40,787 nt of DNA from an uncultured virus (IMG/VR IMGVR_UViG_2061766007_001633) (taxonomy: Duplodnaviria; Heunggongvirae; Uroviricota; Caudoviricetes). Below the pieces are notes generated by a model. It saw only the letters and a list, made by a program, of their open reading frames with translations, did no database searches and had not been told where the DNA came from. Shown here in pieces: positions 22,182-40,787 of this stretch (its first letter is position 1; the number at the start of each line of letters is the position of its first letter). The translations under genes and the position numbers were made by a program. The stretch lies in IMG/VR virus record IMGVR_UViG_2061766007_001633; one strand, 5' to 3'.

Positions 22182-23438
22182 CTACAATAATGCAATTATT
22201 TTTGTGTATAAAAGGAATAACCATTTTATTTTATGTGGAGGGATAATATGAGACTGGCAGATATGCATATCCGAGGAACCGACCTGTTCGATGTAGCGCT
22301 TGACGATGACATCGCAGAACTTCTCGTCCAGCTCGACCGTGTAGCAGATGCGGTCGGACTGTTCGCAGGCAATCAGCGTGCTGCCGGAACCACCGAAGGG
22401 GTCAAGAACCACAGCATTGCTCATGGAGGAGTTCATGATCGGATACGCCAGAAGCGCAATCGGCTTCATGGTCGGATGGTCGCCGTTTTTCTTGGGCTTG
22501 TCGAACTCCCAGATCGTGGTTTCCTTGCGGCCCGTGTACCACTGGTGCTTGCCGTTCTTCTTCCAGCCGTAGAGCACCGGCTCGTGCTGCCACTGATACG
22601 GGGAACGACCGAGCACCAGCGACTGCTTTTTCCAGATGCAACAGCCGGAGAGGTAGAACCCGGCATCAACGAAAGCCCTGCGGAAGTTCAGCCCTTCGGT
22701 GTCCGCGTGGAACACATAGATGGAGGCGTCGTCCGTCATGACGGCTTCCATATTGACAAAGGCGTCGAGCAGGAACTGATAGAAGGCGTCATTTGCCATG
22801 TTGTCGTTCTTGATCTTTCCGGCGCTGCCTTCGTAGTTCACATTGTAAGGAGGATCGGTCAGGACGAGGTTGGCCTTCACATCACCGAGCAGGGTTTCGT
22901 AGGTTTCCTTTTTGGTGGAGTCGCCGCAGACGAGCTTATGCCGTCCGAGCGTCCATACATCACCGGCTTTGGTGAAGGTGGGCTTTTTCAGCTCTTCATC
23001 CACATCAAAATCGTCGTCATGGATGCCGTCCTTCAGGCTGTCCTTGAACAGGTCGTCGATCTCTGCCGGATCAAAACCGGTGAGTGACACATCAAAGTCC
23101 TCGCCCTGCAGGTCCGCGATGAGAAGGGCAAGTTTGTCCTTGTCCCAATCGCCGCTGATCTTGTTGAGGGCGATGTTGAGCGCCTTTTCCTTGGCCTCGT
23201 CCAGCTCCACGACCACGCAGTCAACCTCGGTGATGCCGAGATCGATGAGGACTTTTAGCCTCTGGTGGCCGCCAACGACGCGACCGGTCGTCTTATTCCA
23301 GATGACCGGCTCGACATATCCGAACTCCTCGATGGAGCGTTTCAGCTTTTCGTATTCCTCGTCACCGGGCTTTAGGTCCTTACGAGGGTTGTATTCAGCG
23401 GGCAGGAGCTCCGCAGCTTTCTTTTTCTCAATTAACAT
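22182..23438 (-). CDS. ParB-like domain plus N4/N6 DNA methyltransferase; last ~27 codons derive from foreign AT-rich sequence
   Basis: YNPR...GGHQR ParB N-terminus; catalytic DPPY; HPTMKP; SAM-binding LDPFGGSGST. Confidence 0.93.
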   Translation of the reverse strand: MLIEKKKAAELLPAEYNPRKDLKPGDEEYEKLKRSIEEFGYVEPVIWNKTTGRVVGGHQRLKVLIDLGITEVDCVVVELDEAKEKALNIALNKISGDWDKDKLALLIADLQGEDFDVSLTGFDPAEIDDLFKDSLKDGIHDDDFDVDEELKKPTFTKAGDVWTLGRHKLVCGDSTKKETYETLLGDVKANLVLTDPPYNVNYEGSAGKIKNDNMANDAFYQFLLDAFVNMEAVMTDDASIYVFHADTEGLNFRRAFVDAGFYLSGCCIWKKQSLVLGRSPYQWQHEPVLYGWKKNGKHQWYTGRKETTIWEFDKPKKNGDHPTMKPIALLAYPIMNSSMSNAVVLDPFGGSGSTLIACEQSDRICYTVELDEKFCDVIVKRYIEQVGSSDMHICQSHIIPPHKIKWLFLLYTKIIALL

Positions 23439-24217
23439 ATCAGACCCCACTCAGCGAAGCGCTCGAAGCCGCCTTTCTCGCGGATGAACTGCCTTGCCGT
23501 TTCTACAATTTCTTTATATGGAACCCCGTCCACCATGTCGTCACCGATGGCGCAGCAGAGTTCGACCGGATTGCCGGTTTCCTGTGCTTTGAGCCATGCG
23601 TAGATGTTGATGCTGACATCTGCTTTAGAGAGGTCCTTGCCGTGCAGACCGCCTCCGGTGATGGAATCGCCCATGTCGGAGCCGAGCTTGCGATTGGTAG
23701 CGCCGGAGTCTACATCCGTGCCGCCAGTCCAGTCACCGAGGGGATTGATAATGGCGGTGGGATAGGTTTCCTTCAGGTGCTCGGTCTCGGCATGGCTCTG
23801 ACAGAGCACAAGATGATCGCCGTCGATGATGTATTTGCCGTCAAAGGGATACACATCGTAAAGGAAGCGGGCGATCTGCGTCAGTTCGCGCTGCTCGTCA
23901 GTCACCGGGACGCCTTTGAAGATACCGTTGTCGCCGCAGCGAATGTGGTCGTTCTGGTTTTCGGCCAGCATCGCATCCTGCGGGACCTCGAAATAGTCCG
24001 CGTGAAGATTACCGGCGATGCGGGAAACGGTATCCTGCACCTCTTCATTGGTGAGATGCACCGAGGTTTCCGCGATAATGTGACAAACGCCGTGGCCAAT
24101 CAATATCTCCACGGCGATTTTCGGGTTTTCTGCTTTCAGATACGCAATGTCGACGAGGGCTCCGGCGATGCGGTCGGCCACCTTGTCGGGGTGCGAGGGA
24201 TTTACTTTTTCAAACAT
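23432..24217 (-). CDS. metK: Short phage S-adenosylmethionine synthetase homologue (261 aa)
   Basis: HPDKVADRI, CGDNG, GGTDVDSGATNRKL and GGGLHGKDLSKAD match the MetK motifs GHPDK, GAGDQG, GDxGLTGRK and GGGAFSGKD. Confidence 0.85.
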   Translation of the reverse strand: MFEKVNPSHPDKVADRIAGALVDIAYLKAENPKIAVEILIGHGVCHIIAETSVHLTNEEVQDTVSRIAGNLHADYFEVPQDAMLAENQNDHIRCGDNGIFKGVPVTDEQRELTQIARFLYDVYPFDGKYIIDGDHLVLCQSHAETEHLKETYPTAIINPLGDWTGGTDVDSGATNRKLGSDMGDSITGGGLHGKDLSKADVSINIYAWLKAQETGNPVELCCAIGDDMVDGVPYKEIVETARQFIREKGGFERFAEWGLIC

Positions 24218-35179: not shown

Positions 35180-36497
35180 TTAGTTGTCCTCCTTAAAATC
35201 ATCGATAATGGTTGTCATTGCCGGTCTTTTATCGCTGTCCGGCACCAGCGTGGGTTTACCTTGCGGCTTTGTAACAAGCCCGCCAAGGATGTCGTTGAAC
35301 TGTTTCTTTCCGAGAAGTGTGGTCATGGCGGTGACACCCAGAACCTTGTGTTCGTAGGGGTCGTATCCGGCAGCGGTGACTGCTGCGATGACGGCATTCT
35401 CGTCGGTGTACTTGCGGTTGGCACGGCCTTCGACCAGCTTGTAGCCGGACCATTGCTTGCCGCTGATAGCTGCACGAAGTGCATAGTCCTTGATGTCCGA
35501 TGCCCAAGAAATCAGGTCTTCAATGCGACCGAGGATTTCCTCGACTTCCTCATCCGTCAGGAGAGGCGGCTGCTTGAACTCGTACTTGGCAAGTTCCATG
35601 TTGGCTTCGGCTCTTTTGCGGCAGTCGGCTTTGGCCTTGCAGAACTGGCACCATTCACCGCAGTGGTATTCGCCGCTGCCGTTGAAGGCGAGCTCTGCCG
35701 TGGGGACCAGAACCTTTTCGGCCCATTCGTAGAGGTCTGCTTTCGGGAGAGTGAAGGTGCTGACATTGGCGCGTCTGGGCTGGTAGATCGTCATGCTGAC
35801 GGTGTCGATGTCGTAGATGCAGTCGAACAGCTCCAGCGCACCGAGGGCATACAGCTTCATTTGCGGGTTGTCATCAGCCTCGACCAGAACTCCGCGACCG
35901 TGCTTGTAGTCCACGATGTGCAGCGTCCCGTCCGCGATGATGATACAGTCGCCGGTGCCGAAGCCCTCCTCGACATATTTGGAGTAATCGAGTTTCTGTT
36001 CGATCAGGACCACCGGGTCGGCGCAGGTTTTCTTTGCCTCCTCGACGAGTTCCATCACGAAGGACACATAGCCGTTAGCGCAGTCCTCCATCTCGGCGCT
36101 GTACCACGAGAGGTTTTCTGTCGGGTCTGCAGCTTCCATGCCGAGCGCCGAGCGGAGCTTGTACTCGCANNNNNNNNNNGTCAAGGCGCTGCTCGATCAG
36201 CACCACCGGGTCGGCGCATGTTTTCTTGGCCTCTTCGACGAGTTCCATTACGAAGGACACATAGCCATTCGCGCAGTCCTCCATCTCGGCGCTGTACCAC
36301 GAGAGGTTCTCGGTCGGGTCTGCAGCTTCCATGCCGAGCGCCGAGCGGAGCTTGTACTCGCAAAGCGCGTGAGCGTCGGTACCTTCGGCTGCAAAATCGC
36401 TGCCTTTGTCGTCGTAGTCCTCACAGAGCCTTGCCGAGGGAGGGCAATTCAGCCACCTGTGCGAAGATGATGCAGAGAGAAGTGCGTGATTACCCAT
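35180..36497 (-). CDS. DUF2800 PD-(D/E)xK (Cas4-like) nuclease
   Basis: HALLSASSSHRWLNCPPS, EGTDAH, FGTGDCII, IVDYKHG, NPQMKLYALG, CGEWCQFCKAKADC. Confidence 0.9.
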
Positions 36498-36765
36498 TTC
36501 CCAGCACCTCCGCGTCTGCGACCAGCGCTTTGTACTTTGCCGGGTCGACTTCGGAGAGCTTGCTGGCACCGTACTTCTGGAGGAGTTCACGGATCTGAGC
36601 GGTAAAGCCGTCACGCGACTTGTTGGCCAGAATTGCGCGAACCGCCTCAAGGGTGAGTGCCTGTTCTTCTTTTACGGGTTCCGGAGTGGTTTCCGGTTCG
36701 GCTTCACCGTTGCCACTGAAGGCTTCGGTCAGCCAGTTGGCGATGGAGTTAATAGAAGATGCAAT
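36490..36765 (-). CDS. Conserved phage replication-module protein (5' end in gap)
   Basis: LTLEAVRAILANKSRDGFTAQIRELLQKYGASKLSEVDPAKYKAL. Confidence 0.75.
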   Translation of the reverse strand: MASSINSIANWLTEAFSGNGEAEPETTPEPVKEEQALTLEAVRAILANKSRDGFTAQIRELLQKYGASKLSEVDPAKYKALVADAEVLGNG

Positions 36766-36777
36766 NNNNNNNNNNNN

Positions 36778-36927
36778 ATTGTGGTTTTCTCCTCCTTCCT
36801 TGGATTGACTTGTCTGGGCTTCTCGGATCAGCTGCCTTGCCAGACGCTTTGACACTACGCTGATAGCCGTCAGGACTCCGATGAGCTCTTCATCAGCAAC
36901 GGCTCGGTTGTCTTTGGACTCGTTCAT
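36778..36927 (-). CDS. Small conserved phage protein
   Basis: MNESKDNRAVADEELIGVLTAISVVSKRLARQL; AGGAGG RBS. Confidence 0.7.
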
Positions 36928-36975
36928 GGCGGGTACCTCCTTCCGAGGACTTTTTTGTTGTTTCGCTGTCCTCAG

Positions 36976-37013
36976 TACCCACTGGACAGAAGGTGCCGTT
37001 TTGAACGAAAAGT
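36976..37013 (-). promoter_or_regulatory. Bipartite phage promoter motif, copy 2
   Basis: Same 15-bp and 16-bp blocks as 31282..31319 with a different 7-bp spacer; upstream of the first replication-operon gene. Confidence 0.7.
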
Positions 37014-37019
37014 TTTGAA

Positions 37020-37061
37020 AAAAATATTTGACCGCCGCAGGATTTCTCCCACGACGGCCAA
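37020..37061 (-). terminator. Terminator after the sigma-like gene
   Basis: TTGGCCGTCGTGGGA-GAAA-TCCTGCGGCGGTCAA (15-bp stem with several G-U pairs) then ATATTTTTT. Confidence 0.65.
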
Positions 37062-37070
37062 TGTGTACTA

Positions 37071-37704
37071 TTAAATGAAGTCTTTCAGGGCTTCACGAAG
37101 AAGGTCGAGCACGCGCTTCTTCTGATAATTGATGGTGGACTGACGCTTGCCTAAGTCCGCAGCCATCTCGCGTTCAGTTTTTCCTTCCATAATGAACTGG
37201 CAGATGCGTCTGCCGTCCGGGTCGAGCCTGTCGAGCTCTTCGTAGAGGGCTTCGAGCAGTGCCGTGTTTATAGCGATGGCCTCCGGGGAAGGCTCATCGG
37301 AAACGAGGGTGTCACCGAGGGTTAATCCTTCGGCATCGTCAAGCGGGGTATCGTAGCTGACGGTATTGCCGCAGGCGCTGTACGGGCAAACGCTGCAATC
37401 GGCATCGCAGGCCCANNNNNNNNNNGGTTCTTCTTTTACGGGTTCCGGAGTGGTTTCCGGTTCGGCCTCACCGTTGCCGCTGAAGGCTTCGGTCAGCCAG
37501 TTGGCGATGGAGTTAATAGAAGATACAATNNNNNNNNNNCAGCTTGGACTTCGGGCAAACACAGCGACCGGAGCGCTGCATCTGCTTCCTCGTGCGCTCG
37601 ATTTCCGGGTTGATGGAACGATATACATCTTCAGGTACCGGGACGAGCTGAACATCGTAGGGGTTTTCGGGGTTGCGAACGGGGTAATAGAACTCTGTTT
37701 TCAT
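37071..37704 (-). CDS. Phage sigma-70 region-4 (ECF-like) regulator with Cys cluster; interrupted by misplaced fragment 37426..37529
   Basis: MKTEFYYPV...RCVCPKSKL|WACDADCSVCPY...LDRLDPDGRRICQFIMEGKTEREMAADLGKRQSTINYQKKRVLDLLRE; AAGGAG RBS. Confidence 0.82.
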
Positions 37705-37745
37705 TGTTTTTCTCCTTGGATTTTCAAAATTTGCGGAAATCACAA

Positions 37746-37779
37746 GAAGAAAAAGGCTCCTGTGACTTCTCACAAGAGC
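37746..37779 (-). terminator. Leader terminator upstream of the sigma-like gene
   Basis: GCTCTTGTGA-GAAG-TCACAGGAGC followed by CTTTTTCTTCTT, about 40 nt before the start codon. Confidence 0.65.
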
Positions 37780-37899
37780 TATCCAATCGTTCCTATGGTC
37801 CGGTGCCATAGTTCGTAAGGTTCTTAGAGTTCTTTGGGTTTTTGTTTTTGAAAGTTGTTAAAATTCATTGTTTCGTAACATCGAATTTGTCGTAGATGA

Positions 37900-37928
37900 T
37901 TGTATTTTCGGCTTTTTTGTGTTATAAT
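37900..37928 (+). promoter_or_regulatory. Sigma-A promoter of the divergent plus-strand operon
   Basis: TTGTAT-17 bp-TATAAT with extended TGn. Confidence 0.75.
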
Positions 37929-38017
37929 AGGATTTAGTAGGGTTTGTTGGGGTTTGTAGTAATCCCCATACGAGCCCTTGTTCCAGTGAAAATCAGAGTC
38001 AATCGGAGGAGTTAACT

Positions 38018-38890
38018 GTGTCAAACAGCGTTTATCCCCGTCTTTGTGGAGGCACATTCTTCACCTTGGTATTGCAGGCCCTCAAGCAGCGGGTCAAAGC
38101 AAGAGAACATTATAATGGTGAGAGGGACGGCCTTTCAGATCCCGAAGTTTTGACAGGGCTCATTAAGGTCATCAATCCCGATTATCAGGTGCCGAAAGAC
38201 GGACTGAATAAGGGAAAAACAAATGAATATAAATCGTGCAAGACATCCGATGGAGCGTACCTGCCTTTTGGTGATACGCAGGAGGTTCGGGCTTTTGACT
38301 CGCGTGTACAGACGGACTATCGTGACGCTTTGAAGCCGATGGTCGCCTTTGTCGAGGAGTTTGTTGACACTGGCGCAGCGGTCAAAAAGCATGAGCATCT
38401 GGTTAAGGCGCTCGTTGATCTCATACAGAAGGATCAGTCTATTCTGGACGATGCCGAGTTCTATATTGGCGAGAACGGCGAGAAAACAAAAAAGGCCGCG
38501 CTTGGCGACCTGACAGAAGTTTGCCTTCCCGCATTTTTACTTGGGGTTTGGCATTATGCAGTTGTTTTCCGAAAAGACAATACAGTAGGTCAGGTGACCT
38601 ACGACGAGTGGTGTCCTTCGCAGGGTGGCGGCAAAAGAATATACAAAGGGAACATGGGCGATGGCATTCTTGACGGACTGGTTGTTATTGTGCCAGAAAT
38701 GAAGGAAGAAGAACCTCCTATCATTGAAGATGCTGAGCCGGTAGAAGCAGAGGTGTATGAAGAACCTCAACCGCAGACGGTTCAACAGACCGTGAACCAT
38801 CCGTTCGTGTTCAACTTTACACAGCACGGAGATAACAATACCCAGATTGGCCACATCGAGCACTATCATGCCGATAAGAAGGAGGATTGA
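38018..38890 (+). CDS. Unknown protein A with C-terminal RHIM-like motif after an acidic/Pro-rich linker
   Basis: 290-aa gap-free ORF, GGAGGAG RBS, GTG start; no family recognised. Confidence 0.85.
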   Translation: MSNSVYPRLCGGTFFTLVLQALKQRVKAREHYNGERDGLSDPEVLTGLIKVINPDYQVPKDGLNKGKTNEYKSCKTSDGAYLPFGDTQEVRAFDSRVQTDYRDALKPMVAFVEEFVDTGAAVKKHEHLVKALVDLIQKDQSILDDAEFYIGENGEKTKKAALGDLTEVCLPAFLLGVWHYAVVFRKDNTVGQVTYDEWCPSQGGGKRIYKGNMGDGILDGLVVIVPEMKEEEPPIIEDAEPVEAEVYEEPQPQTVQQTVNHPFVFNFTQHGDNNTQIGHIEHYHADKKED

Positions 38891-38894
38891 TGCA

Positions 38895-39557
38895 ATGGAA
38901 AAAGACAATAAGATAGTCCCTTCCGGCAACCAGCCTCCGCAGGTGGTAGGTCCCGGACAGCCGACACCGTTGGAGTTCAAACAAGAAGGAAGCGGCAACA
39001 CCCAGATCGGCCATGTTGAACACTACGACACCACGGTCAATCAAACGGTTGTGATCATGAATGGCTTTCAGCCTAACAACAGGCCGGTGGCTCCTCAGAG
39101 CGTATATTTCAACTATGATTGTTTTAATCTGTTCGTGCTGTTAGATGAGAAATATGACCAGCAAACATTCCTTGTACCGAAAGACCGAGCCTTGACAGAA
39201 TCCACTTCTGATGAGATGAAAGCACAGTGCGCCTCATTGACACCAGAGGCAATTCAGATAATAAAAACATTCCCGGCTCTGTTCTGTAGTGAGAATCACT
39301 ATTTTTCAAAAACCGATCCTGACCACATGGCCTATTATGGGTATGTGAACGATATAAAAGTTCAGGACAACGGAATCAAGGTATACTTCCAAATCCTGAA
39401 TTCATTTCCACAGCAGATCCTGATCGATATGGCCGAAGATTTATACATCGGTGGCGCGAGGCATTTCAACGAGTTGTGCCGGACGCATTGGGCCATTAAG
39501 AGAATAAACATGATAGAAGTATTTGAGCAACACGGATACAAATTATTCAAGCTCTAA
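38895..39557 (+). CDS. Unknown protein B with N-terminal RHIM-like motif and a C-terminal globular domain
   Basis: 220-aa ORF from ATG 38895 with AGGAGG RBS inside the end of gene A. Confidence 0.85.
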   Translation: MEKDNKIVPSGNQPPQVVGPGQPTPLEFKQEGSGNTQIGHVEHYDTTVNQTVVIMNGFQPNNRPVAPQSVYFNYDCFNLFVLLDEKYDQQTFLVPKDRALTESTSDEMKAQCASLTPEAIQIIKTFPALFCSENHYFSKTDPDHMAYYGYVNDIKVQDNGIKVYFQILNSFPQQILIDMAEDLYIGGARHFNELCRTHWAIKRINMIEVFEQHGYKLFKL

Positions 39558-39590
39558 TCATTGCATACAGAAAGAAACGGAGGAAAAGCA

Positions 39591-39809
39591 ATGAACCGTG
39601 AACATGAAGAAGCAACTGTCGAGAAAGAAGTTACTATCGAGAAATGGGTAAATCTCAAAGATATAGCGGAGCACCTCAGCGTAAGTCAGGACACCGTCCG
39701 CACTTGGATCAAGGATGGCAAGCTCCCATTTTATAAAGCGGGTAAGAGCTACAAGTTCAAAATCTCCGAAGTGGACGAGTGGGTCCGCGAAGGCAGAATA
39801 CAAGACTAA
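39591..39809 (+). CDS. Excisionase-type helix-turn-helix protein (HTH_17-like)
   Basis: WVNLKDIAEHLSVSQDTVRTWIKDGKLPFYKAGKSYKFKISEVDEW. Confidence 0.88.
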   Translation: MNREHEEATVEKEVTIEKWVNLKDIAEHLSVSQDTVRTWIKDGKLPFYKAGKSYKFKISEVDEWVREGRIQD

Positions 39810-39830
39810 GCGAAGGATGGTGTAAGGTAT

Positions 39831-40787
39831 ATGCAGAGAAAAGTCCCTTCAGCAATTACGAAAATCACTCTTGACCGCGCCACCTTTTCCAATGTGCCGG
39901 TCGAAGATCTTACTTTCATAAACTTCTTTTACGGCAATAACGGTGCCGGTAAATCGTCCATCGCGCATGCCATCGATGAAGATGATGGCGTTGNNNNNNN
40001 NNNNNNNNNNNNNGTGACGATTATGATGTCCTTGTCTACAATCAGGACTTCATAAACGACAACTTTGAAAACTACGGTGATCTTGAGGGTGTCTTTATCT
40101 TCGGTGAAGAGGATATCGAGGCCAAGAAGAAAATTGCTGATCTTACAGATAAGAAAAAAACAAAGTCCGACGAGCGTACAAAAGCCCTTGAAGACTACGG
40201 CACAAAAAAGAATGGCATCGAAGCTGCTATGACAGAGCTTCAAGAAACCTGCTTCACCACCACAGCTGATATCCGTAAGCGCTTTGAAAAGTGCATGGAC
40301 GGCAAGAAGCAGAAAAAGAGTTTCACTGATGCGGTTCTTGCGGAAACATCTCCGACAAAAATAGACATCGCTAAATTGGAGCAGCTTTATGATGTTGCTT
40401 TTGATGATACGGCCAGAACCTATCCTGAGTTCAAGCGTGCTGGTTCTAAAACGACATACGGCAGCCTGCCCGGAAAGGACCTGCTGGACAAAGTAATCGT
40501 AAGCAGTAGCGACACTCCGTTTGCAAACTTTATGAAGGCGCTGGGTGCTTCGGCTTCTGCGTGGGTCCGTGACGGTCACACTCACTATTCCGCTGCTGCA
40601 GCCGGTAAATGCCCTNNNNNNNNNNCAATCAGGATTTCATCAATGACAACTTCATGAATTACGGCGATCTGAAAGGCGTCTTTATCTTCGGTGAGGAAGA
40701 TATCGAGGCCAAGAAAAAGATTGCGGAGCTCACGGATCAGAAAAAACAGAAATCTGACGCTCGCCTTGCAGCTCTTGAGGAGCATAA
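39831..40787 (+). CDS. AAA_13 / RloC-like ABC-type ATPase, N-terminal part (40626..40787 is an allelic duplicate of about 40039..40200)
   Basis: INFFYGNNGAGKSS Walker A, VLVYNQDFI Q-loop region, coiled coil, start of zinc hook GKCP at about 40606..40615. Confidence 0.8.

Follow-up and report, generated by a model that had tools for sequence, protein, structure and literature searches.

Amyloid signalling in bacterial immunity has so far been represented by one tested system, Bab/Agp, together with the untested Bell/NLR pairs of multicellular bacteria. Bab/Agp, from E. coli ECOR25, sits in a prophage defence island and is an amyloid signalling system in which a non-NLR sensor acts on an adjacent effector (Ibarlosa et al., bioRxiv 10.1101/2024.11.07.622273); the Bell/NLR pairs carry the motif families BASS1–10, which show a bias towards Gln, Asn, Gly, Val and Ile and against Lys, Pro and Leu (Dyrka et al., bioRxiv 10.1101/2020.01.06.895854). 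A review from 2026 still assigns BASS to multicellular bacteria. Here we describe an adjacent pair of genes, A and B, located towards one end of a 40,787-nucleotide (nt) stretch of DNA from an uncultured virus of the Caudoviricetes (IMG/VR record IMGVR_UViG_2061766007_001633; the whole stretch is ‘the window’ in what follows). Their products bear the same short motif—at the C-terminus of A and at the N-terminus of B—and the two ends are kept alike within homologous pairs, the arrangement that characterises amyloid signalling partners.

Set beside Bab/Agp (BASS11), the A–B pair has much in common: the genes are adjacent and lie in a prophage defence region, the motif, of ~20–25 residues, stands at the C-terminus of the effector and at the N-terminus of a non-NLR sensor, and abortive infection, shown for Bab/Agp, is what we propose for A–B. 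It differs in having a helical effector domain of 228 amino acids (aa) in place of the Bell-type domain of ~90 aa, a motif from a different sequence family, hosts among the gut Clostridia rather than the Enterobacteria, and in being known from sequence alone. With the Bell/NLR pairs of BASS1–10 (Dyrka et al.) it shares the geometry of the pair, the composition bias, the conserved Gly/Asn/Gln positions and the occurrence of ‘all-in-one’ effector fusions; unlike these, B has no NB-ARC or NACHT module, and the pair belongs to unicellular Bacillota and their phages as opposed to multicellular Actinobacteria and Cyanobacteria. An earlier reading of the window made from its letters only (the sequence-only reading) had stated that neither partner looks like an NLR or a Bell/HeLo protein, and we find the same: B, at 220 aa, has a probable PUA-like domain, and A a helical one of no known fold. 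An NLR partner is no longer a defining feature, because the published Bab/Agp system also does without it. As in the fungal HET-S/NWD2 pair, the genes are adjacent and the N-terminal motif of the receptor templates the C-terminal motif of the effector (for A–B, a proposal); in contrast to the fungal pair, to which it has no sequence relation, A–B lacks a HeLo domain, an NLR and a double repeat in the effector.

Both genes lie on the plus strand, as do the parts of this locus described below. Gene A (38018–38890, GTG start) encodes an effector-type protein of 290 aa; gene B (38895–39557) a sensor-type protein of 220 aa made up of a leader, the N-terminal motif and the PUA-like domain, both as read from their open reading frames (ORFs) and translations. 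The stop codon of A (38888–38890) stands 4 nt from the start of B, whose Shine-Dalgarno-like ribosome-binding site can be read within the 3′ end of A (38880–38886). Working along A from its N-terminus, the helical domain (aa 1–228; 38018–38701), as modelled by AlphaFold2 (AF2), gives way to an acidic, Pro-rich and variable linker that is predicted to be disordered (aa 229–259; 38702–38794; pLDDT 33–38) and then to the motif (aa 260–283; 38795–38866), which alignments and BLASTP delimit as a strand, a Gly-x-x-Asn turn and a second strand. The motif of B, delimited in the same way (aa 26–55; 38970–39059), matches the tail of A and adds one further strand-like segment.

Over the best-matching stretch, A aa 267–283 (38816–38866) and B aa 28–44 (38976–39026), 12 of 17 residues are identical, just as the sequence-only reading had reported, with coordinates and frames correct. 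Also borne out is its observation that 7 of these 12 residues use other codons; nucleotide identity over the stretch is 34/51, and the longest identical run is 8 nt. The remainder of the two proteins is unalike, as had been claimed: BLASTP aligns the motif region alone (13/22 identical, E 7e-6 in a single comparison). Searched with a degenerate DNA pattern, the window contains the six-residue core two times, compared with no occurrence in 100 shuffles. The window scaffold contains 55 runs of N, and the locus is free of them, being continuous from 37540 to 39993 between the flanking runs at 37530–37539 and 39994–40013; an assembly duplicate is ruled out by this gap-free sequence taken together with the differing codons. 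The acidic/Pro linker of A, the Pro/Gly/Gln leader of B and the Gln/Asn/Thr/Val-rich flanks of both motifs are likewise all present.

In its composition the motif stands apart from the globular domains, with Gln, Asn, Gly, Val and Ile making up 53% of residues as against 29%, and Lys, Pro and Leu 8% as against 20%. Residue by residue, Asn is enriched 3.4-fold, Gln 2.4-fold and Gly and Ile each 1.5-fold, Val is flat (0.97-fold), and Lys (0.50-fold), Pro (0.64-fold) and Leu (0.25-fold) are depleted. At ~25 residues, and disordered in the monomer models of both A and B (pLDDT 37–47 for the motif of B), it agrees with the published description of BASS motifs in length, in conserved Gly/Asn/Gln positions and in composition bias, Val excepted. 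Over 121 homologues of A, the mean frequency of the majority residue is 0.81 in the motif region compared with 0.51 in the acidic linker. The sequence-only reading had called the motif RHIM-like; kinship with the RHIM of RIPK1/RIPK3 is not supported. Two of the motif classes have a Gln-Ile-Gly core that resembles (I/V)-Q-(I/V)-G; the first Gly of G-phi-Q-phi-G is missing, the window motifs reading Asn-Thr-Gln-Ile-Gly, and most of the remaining classes lack the Gln-Ile-Gly core. The RHIM/PP/BASS3 signature G-phi-Q-phi-G, as given by Dyrka et al., is not conserved across the family, most other A/B classes having no Gln-x-Gly at this place, and a search with Pfam RHIM (PF12721) gave no match at E up to 1, HMMER filters being liable to drop very weak matches.

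The adjacency of the two genes is strongly conserved. A large protein collection holds 807 homologues of A and 281 of B at E≤0.001; of 38 loci taken from genomes, 33 have B as the next gene downstream of A, the other five comprising one NACHT fusion (locus L019) and four contig ends, and among those from viral contigs it does so in 61 of 66, the others being two contig ends, a second NACHT fusion (L081) and two copies of a 403-aa variant of A without B (L103 and L104). Taken together, the pair is present in 94 of 104 loci. In the 403-aa variant (L103:3968–5176 and L104:2251–3459; 32% identity) the C-terminal domain is another one, the motif is missing and the gene is not followed by B.

Across these loci the matched ends of A and B, tail and head, fall into many sequence classes, at least nine, and both partners of each locus belong to the same class. 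A common plan runs through all of them: hydrophobic and polar residues alternate along a short first strand, which leads through a turn into a second strand and, in many cases, a third. The turn consists of Gly, two variable residues and, mostly, Asn, the Gly being the sole invariant column in an alignment of 49 segments. For 27 unique pairs (L001 and L031, whose genes are broken, were excluded), identity at 26 anchored positions is 41% with the protein’s own partner and 24% with non-partners, and none of 10,000 partner shuffles reaches the observed sum. Extending the comparison to 93 pairs, 72 of them unique, the mean local-alignment score of tail against head is 59.4 within true pairs, compared with 34.8 outside them; only 11 of the 72 score highest with their own partner and no other, owing to ties among near-identical relatives. 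When these are collapsed to nine tail classes the scores become 56.4 and 30.0, the own partner is top-scoring in six of the nine, and none of 20,000 shuffles reaches the observed sum. Further classes that the motif profile missed can be seen by eye to match within their pairs (L091, L097, L098, L100 and L101). Co-variation of the motifs within homologous pairs, which the sequence-only reading had named as a check, is therefore present.

Shared descent alone is insufficient to account for this, because both ends could then drift without being kept alike. Recent gene conversion of the motif is unlikely, judging from the codons: in 22 unique pairs, 3–7 of 5–12 identical residues are specified by different codons, and identical runs do not exceed 11 nt. 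With conserved adjacency, within-pair co-variation and, as described below, fused forms, the claim that A and B are a functional pair by virtue of a shared motif is upheld, and we regard it as highly probable that the two proteins interact directly through their matched motifs as one sensor–effector unit. The motif occurs in exactly two copies per genome, one in A and one in B, in four of the five genomes reached by way of the loci, the fifth having only a NACHT fusion; among 401 genomes of one family it was found in four, again with exactly two copies in each. The spread is sporadic, like that of mobile defence genes, and no third, host-encoded partner appears in these genomes. One locus of a Lachnospiraceae genome (L001:2689–4275) holds a decayed pair, A being frameshifted and B interrupted by an in-frame stop directly after the motif; the motif-less 168-aa form of B from this locus (P0138) is recorded on 359 contigs, so that a decayed copy of the pair is common.

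The N-terminal domain of A belongs to no family that we could find in Pfam (up to E 1), NCBIfam or PHROG. Its AF2 model, built from a 31-sequence alignment, has a pTM of 0.70, with pLDDT of 85–96 at residues 90–180 and disorder at residues 229–290; fold searches with it returned no match (best E 0.6 against the PDB in Foldseek, best Z 2.6 in the VIA wide search and best E 0.23 against BFVD), a sequence profile gave nothing relevant in the PDB, and the ESM Atlas, whose own model of A is poor, no usable match. PADLOC gave only a weak match to HamA (DUF1837, Hachiman; E 0.0025 over 65 positions), and the structure searches showed no nuclease fold. Conservation is highest over the first 32 residues and at scattered invariant Arg, Glu, His, Tyr, Asp, Lys and Cys, a pattern that would fit an enzyme, or a surface for specific binding, better than a simple scaffold.

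The context of the domain in longer proteins is telling. In 27 of 34 longer homologues it forms the N-terminal module of NACHT proteins of ~850–890 aa, most of which have a SNaCT14 domain at the C-terminus; matches to these NACHT and NACHT-SNaCT14 proteins range from E 1e-26 to 9e-86 with 36–62% identity, and a hidden Markov model of the domain covers residues 1–225 in both P0243 and P0250. The genes at L019 and L081 are of this A-domain–NACHT type, and the neighbours of L019 are a serine recombinase and a restriction-modification system of type I. Kibby et al. (bioRxiv 10.1101/2022.07.19.500537) describe bacterial NACHT proteins as antiphage, with the effector at the N-terminus; A shares its N-terminal domain with their NACHT-SNaCT14 proteins, the difference being that there it is fused to the NTPase and sensor and in A it is free-standing and motif-tagged. 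From its place in the effector position of NACHT proteins it follows that A represents an effector domain set free and tagged at its C-terminus, and by analogy A is likely to be a cell-killing protein.

The second half of the pair shows a more recognisable fold. In the AF2 model of B, residues 1–68 are disordered and residues 70–220 form a confident alpha/beta domain (pLDDT ~83–95), which, from AF2, the VIA wide search and Foldseek, is probably a PUA-like beta-barrel of EVE/YTH/ASCH type (aa 70–220; 39102–39554). The leading Foldseek matches are YTH domains (E 4e-3, probability up to 0.94); the VIA wide search, which does not depend on Foldseek and covers 48,161 chains, finds PH1033 (Z 6.8, root-mean-square deviation 3.4, 118 residues aligned), the EVE domain of VcaM4I (Z 6.3), DrmA (Z 6.2), the YTH-like N-terminal domain of an archaeal McrB bound to 5-methylcytosine (m5C) DNA (Z 5.7) and then YTH, ASCH and THYN1 chains. 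The EVE/YTH/ASCH superfamily accounts for the top 17 matches of this search and for all 50 rows of a second look (EVE, YTH, ASCH and McrB-N chains). By sequence, Pfam (up to E 1), NCBIfam and PHROG yield no family for B, and its profile finds nothing relevant among PDB sequences. Given modest Z-scores and the lack of any sequence-profile match, we take the domain to be no more than a probable, divergent PUA-like reader.

In prokaryotic modification-dependent restriction, modified bases are usually sensed by domains of this fold class (Bell et al., PMC7641849), and in both probable fold class and defence context B resembles the EVE-HNH protein VcaM4I and the EVE/YTH-McrB proteins. Unlike VcaM4I and McrB, reader and effector of A–B are separate chains joined by a peptide motif, with no recognisable nuclease and no EVE, YTH or ASCH profile match. 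The effector-type architecture of A and the sensor-type architecture of B, both proposed in the sequence-only reading, thus find support in the NACHT fusions of the one and the PUA-like fold of the other.

Besides its fusions to NACHT, the domain of A occurs joined to that of B, and both kinds correspond to the ‘all-in-one’ forms of the Bell/NLR literature. Three proteins (P0254, P0255 and P0276) hold the N-terminal domain of A and the C-terminal domain of B in one chain, with a helical region in the middle, and none of them has a match to the motif even at E≤10; a covalent link can, it follows, stand in for the motif pair. When a profile made from the 49 motif segments was run against 1.84 billion representative proteins, there were 63 matches at E≤0.001, all in proteins of at most 310 aa; among the 60 new ones that we examined, 16 have the A domain, 9 the B domain and the rest are mostly short tail or head fragments, and one match was set aside as a low-complexity false positive. 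Three truncated forms of A or B joined to an EVE-AAA_5 (McrB-like) protein (P0248, P0261 and P0233) were also discarded, since they end inside conserved domains and come from a single contig each; we take them for likely assembly chimeras, or for the products of deletions between defence genes that lie side by side, and the precomputed PF28529 label of P0233 belongs to its McrB-like C-terminus, not to B.

A few proteins carry the motif on other domains. P0336 has a Cap4-type endonuclease domain (PDB 7yib, E 1.7e-25; PADLOC CBASS effector, E 8e-66) followed, at the place of the SAVED ligand-binding domain of Cap4, by a motif of the C-terminal class seen in A at L024–L032. It is known from two short contigs, and we did not find it in viral contigs, JGI metagenome contigs or 401 genomes of one family. 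A second family, of ~285 aa (P0313 and P0337–P0340; five members on several contigs), has an unrelated N-terminal domain of 215 residues, an acidic linker and a motif of the L024 class; one of its members lies on a 22.6-kb contig. At L094 (8052–8678), and at the same place in L096, the motif has a third carrier, whose gene overlaps the downstream AAA_13 gene at its end. In this protein an N-terminal motif of the local class precedes a domain, ‘domain X’, which the long A proteins of L038 and L099 also contain, inserted there between N-terminal domain and tail.

What kind of contact do the motifs make? We lean, by a modest amount, towards A–B being a two-gene, prophage-carried and NLR-free sensor–effector defence module whose halves are coupled by a templating motif of amyloid-signalling type. 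We infer a ligand for B, a cross-beta assembly, activation by clustering, an activity of A and an abortive-infection outcome, in the following order. The PUA-like domain of B would bind modified bases in incoming phage nucleic acid; several molecules of B on the ligand would bring their disordered N-terminal motifs together; these would take up a stacked beta-strand, amyloid-like fold; the stack would then recruit and template the matching motif at the C-terminus of A; and the clustered N-terminal domains of A would switch on, killing the infected cell or bringing it to a halt. Clustering is put forward as the activating step on three grounds: the NACHT fusions, the replacement of SAVED on the Cap4-type protein, and the activation of Cap4 itself by oligomerisation. 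Identical residues at the same positions in both partners fit an in-register stacking, something that a simple heterodimer would not need. The defence role, with abortive infection as its likely form, had been one of two proposed in the sequence-only reading and suits the surroundings: the accessory end of a prophage, a PADLOC candidate defence gene (PDC-S06) and restriction-modification methylases.

The same observations can be read, though we think it rather unlikely, as those of a constitutive two-subunit enzyme in which the motifs form a fixed docking zipper of beta-sheet, of defined size and without prion-like templating or polymerisation; A–B would then be a split version of the fused protein, reader and catalytic subunit of a modification-dependent restriction or toxin enzyme. 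The motif-free single-chain fusions are compatible with such a permanent linkage, PUA-type readers are usually attached covalently to their nucleases, the motif is absent from NLR-type oligomerising receptors in the profile search, and the 4-nt gene spacing with translational coupling would suit stoichiometric subunits. A fixed heterodimer, however, calls for complementary surfaces, and what we see instead is identical residues at the same positions in at least nine classes, with the composition of beta-arch and amyloid signalling motifs. Against fixed docking there is also the use of the motif in place of the oligomerising SAVED domain on a Cap4 nuclease, and the presence of the A domain on NACHT modules, which act by oligomerisation.

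Saying this, several points weigh against the templating module that we favour. Matching and co-varying motifs prove interaction, not amyloid. The fold matches of B are modest, its best Z of 6.8 lying below the caution line of 8 for the search tool, and its sequence has no match to the EVE, YTH or ASCH families of Pfam at E up to 1; the domain of A has no recognisable fold or catalytic motif, its toxicity being deduced from position alone; and PADLOC has no model for either protein. The generality of the motif comes down to a few exceptions, matches being nearly all to the A/B family or to fragments, and among the 1.84 billion representatives there is no NLR or other long protein that carries it. 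Lastly, genes for a helix-turn-helix (HTH) protein and an AAA_13 protein follow the pair in most related loci, and the functional unit may exceed two genes.

A toxin–antitoxin polarity, in which B would keep A inactive through the motif until infection removes or titrates it (for example, onto modified DNA), seems improbable to us. Small, adjacent and translationally coupled genes on a mobile element are what one would expect of such a system, and A and B are broken together in L001; in this pair, though, the presumed toxin gene comes first, and the motif is borne on long disordered linkers, far from the globular domain of A. Assembly is known or expected to activate the A domain and the Cap4 domain, not to inhibit them, and fused forms would be inhibited permanently.

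We likewise see little probability in A and B being accessories of a larger, four- or five-gene system with the HTH protein and the AAA_13 protein as its true sensor or motor. Directly after B in the window comes a small DNA-binding protein of HTH_17/excisionase type (39591–39809; Pfam HTH_17, E 1.5e-14; PADLOC mad1, E 7e-11), whose score against MADS1 of NCBIfam, at 59.6 bits, falls under the cut-off of 80, and then an AAA_13 ATPase, in PADLOC the candidate defence gene PDC-S06 (39831–40787; Pfam E 1e-17; PADLOC E 1.5e-40), here interrupted by N runs and cut at the window end. Of 81 related loci, 75 have a full-length AAA_13 gene (760–783 aa) after B and in its orientation, together with the HTH gene, and it is the end of this gene that the further motif-bearing gene overlaps in L094 and L096; both observations would suit a larger unit. 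Set against them, AAA_13 is missing from 6 of the 81 loci, in two of which (L087 and L105) convergent small genes follow the pair, the AAA_13 protein itself has no motif (there being two motif matches per genome), PADLOC lists PDC-S06 as a single-gene candidate, and the conserved synteny may merely reflect related prophages.

Viral RHIM decoys are known and the genes are phage-borne, and still there is only the faintest chance that the pair is a counter-defence decoy of a host amyloid pathway or, as the sequence-only reading had offered for its second proposal, a switch that induces the prophage by inactivating a repressor-like A, seeing that no host-encoded third carrier appears (two motif copies per genome in 4/5 and 4/401 genomes) and that A has no HTH, no family match and no DNA-binding or repressor features.

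Returning to the templating module, its design principle is already known. What appears to be new, as far as our searches reach, is the motif family, a free-standing tagged effector domain, a PUA-like reader as receptor, and the occurrence in unicellular gut Bacillota and their temperate phages. In the literature we find only Bell/NLR BASS1–10 and Bab/Agp as bacterial systems, and related motifs might stand in the supplementary tables of both preprints; the word ‘amyloid’ is absent from the 2020 EVE survey. If the templating reading is true, the principle gains ground in four directions: unicellular gut Firmicutes with their prophages, a minimal sensor that is no NLR and belongs to a fold class that elsewhere reads modified bases, a new effector domain that bacterial NLR-like proteins also have, and a new motif family. 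More tentatively, and with the balance tipping slightly against it, we can picture an NLR-free amyloid-signalling module that is widespread in gut Clostridia and in the temperate phages of these hosts: modified bases would be read by a domain of 150 residues, which would nucleate a prion-like fold and so switch on a new class of cell-killing domain, the motif classes, at least nine in number, would act as orthogonal ‘address codes’ that prevent cross-triggering among co-resident prophages, and the same tag would arm other effectors, such as the Cap4-type nuclease. The hundreds of sequence clusters and many co-varying classes are natural material on templating specificity, and the family offers a handle on the activity of an effector domain that is present on NACHT proteins.

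As to the element that carries the pair, the large genes from position 1 to ~37655 of the window all lie on the minus strand and make up a siphovirus-like phage set, including tape-measure pieces, the portal, large and small terminase, head–tail connectors, a DNA polymerase, a primase/helicase, an exonuclease and a sigma-like factor. Genes A and B are in the opposite orientation at the end of this block, that is, at its accessory end. Relatives of the pair are found inside bacterial contigs of 300–470 kb (Lachnospiraceae, Oscillospiraceae, Anaeromassilibacillus, Evtepia, Pseudoruminococcus and others) and on 66 IMG/VR viral contigs; since both kinds of contig carry them, the element is a temperate phage or prophage of gut Clostridia. 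Sequencing runs that contain the window’s own DNA are labelled as bovine gut metagenomes. In relatives the cassette goes on beyond AAA_13 with type I or type II methyltransferases or with an EVE-AAA_5 (McrB-like) gene, and the surroundings of the pair are a defence-cargo region.

Two further observations concern the window itself. A ParB-like/DNA methyltransferase fusion is encoded at 22185–23450 on the minus strand (PHROG 498, E 6e-191), which matters if the product of gene B reads base modifications. Diverged copies of the same sequences repeat across N runs at 36490–37655 and 40016–40787, for example in the minus-strand ORFs 36490–36927 and 37071–37655 and in the N-terminal part of AAA_13 at 40016–40200 and 40626–40787; on this evidence from the letters the scaffold seems to string strain variants in series.

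Upstream of A we see one candidate promoter for an A–B operon (37900–37928), consisting of a weak -35-like element (37900–37905), a 17-nt spacer and a consensus -10 hexamer (37923–37928) preceded by TG; the candidate -35 matches at three of six positions, and a scan for consensus promoters lists no site upstream of A. Relatives of A and B are covered by contigs from four RNA-library runs of two studies, which does not amount to a demonstration of transcription because such libraries can contain DNA. In two of these runs, both from one study, contigs stop at 37948, ~20 nt past the -10-like hexamer, a weak hint that transcripts may start there, and one of these contigs, 2,358 nt long, continues from that position across A, B and the HTH gene and reaches into the AAA_13 gene.

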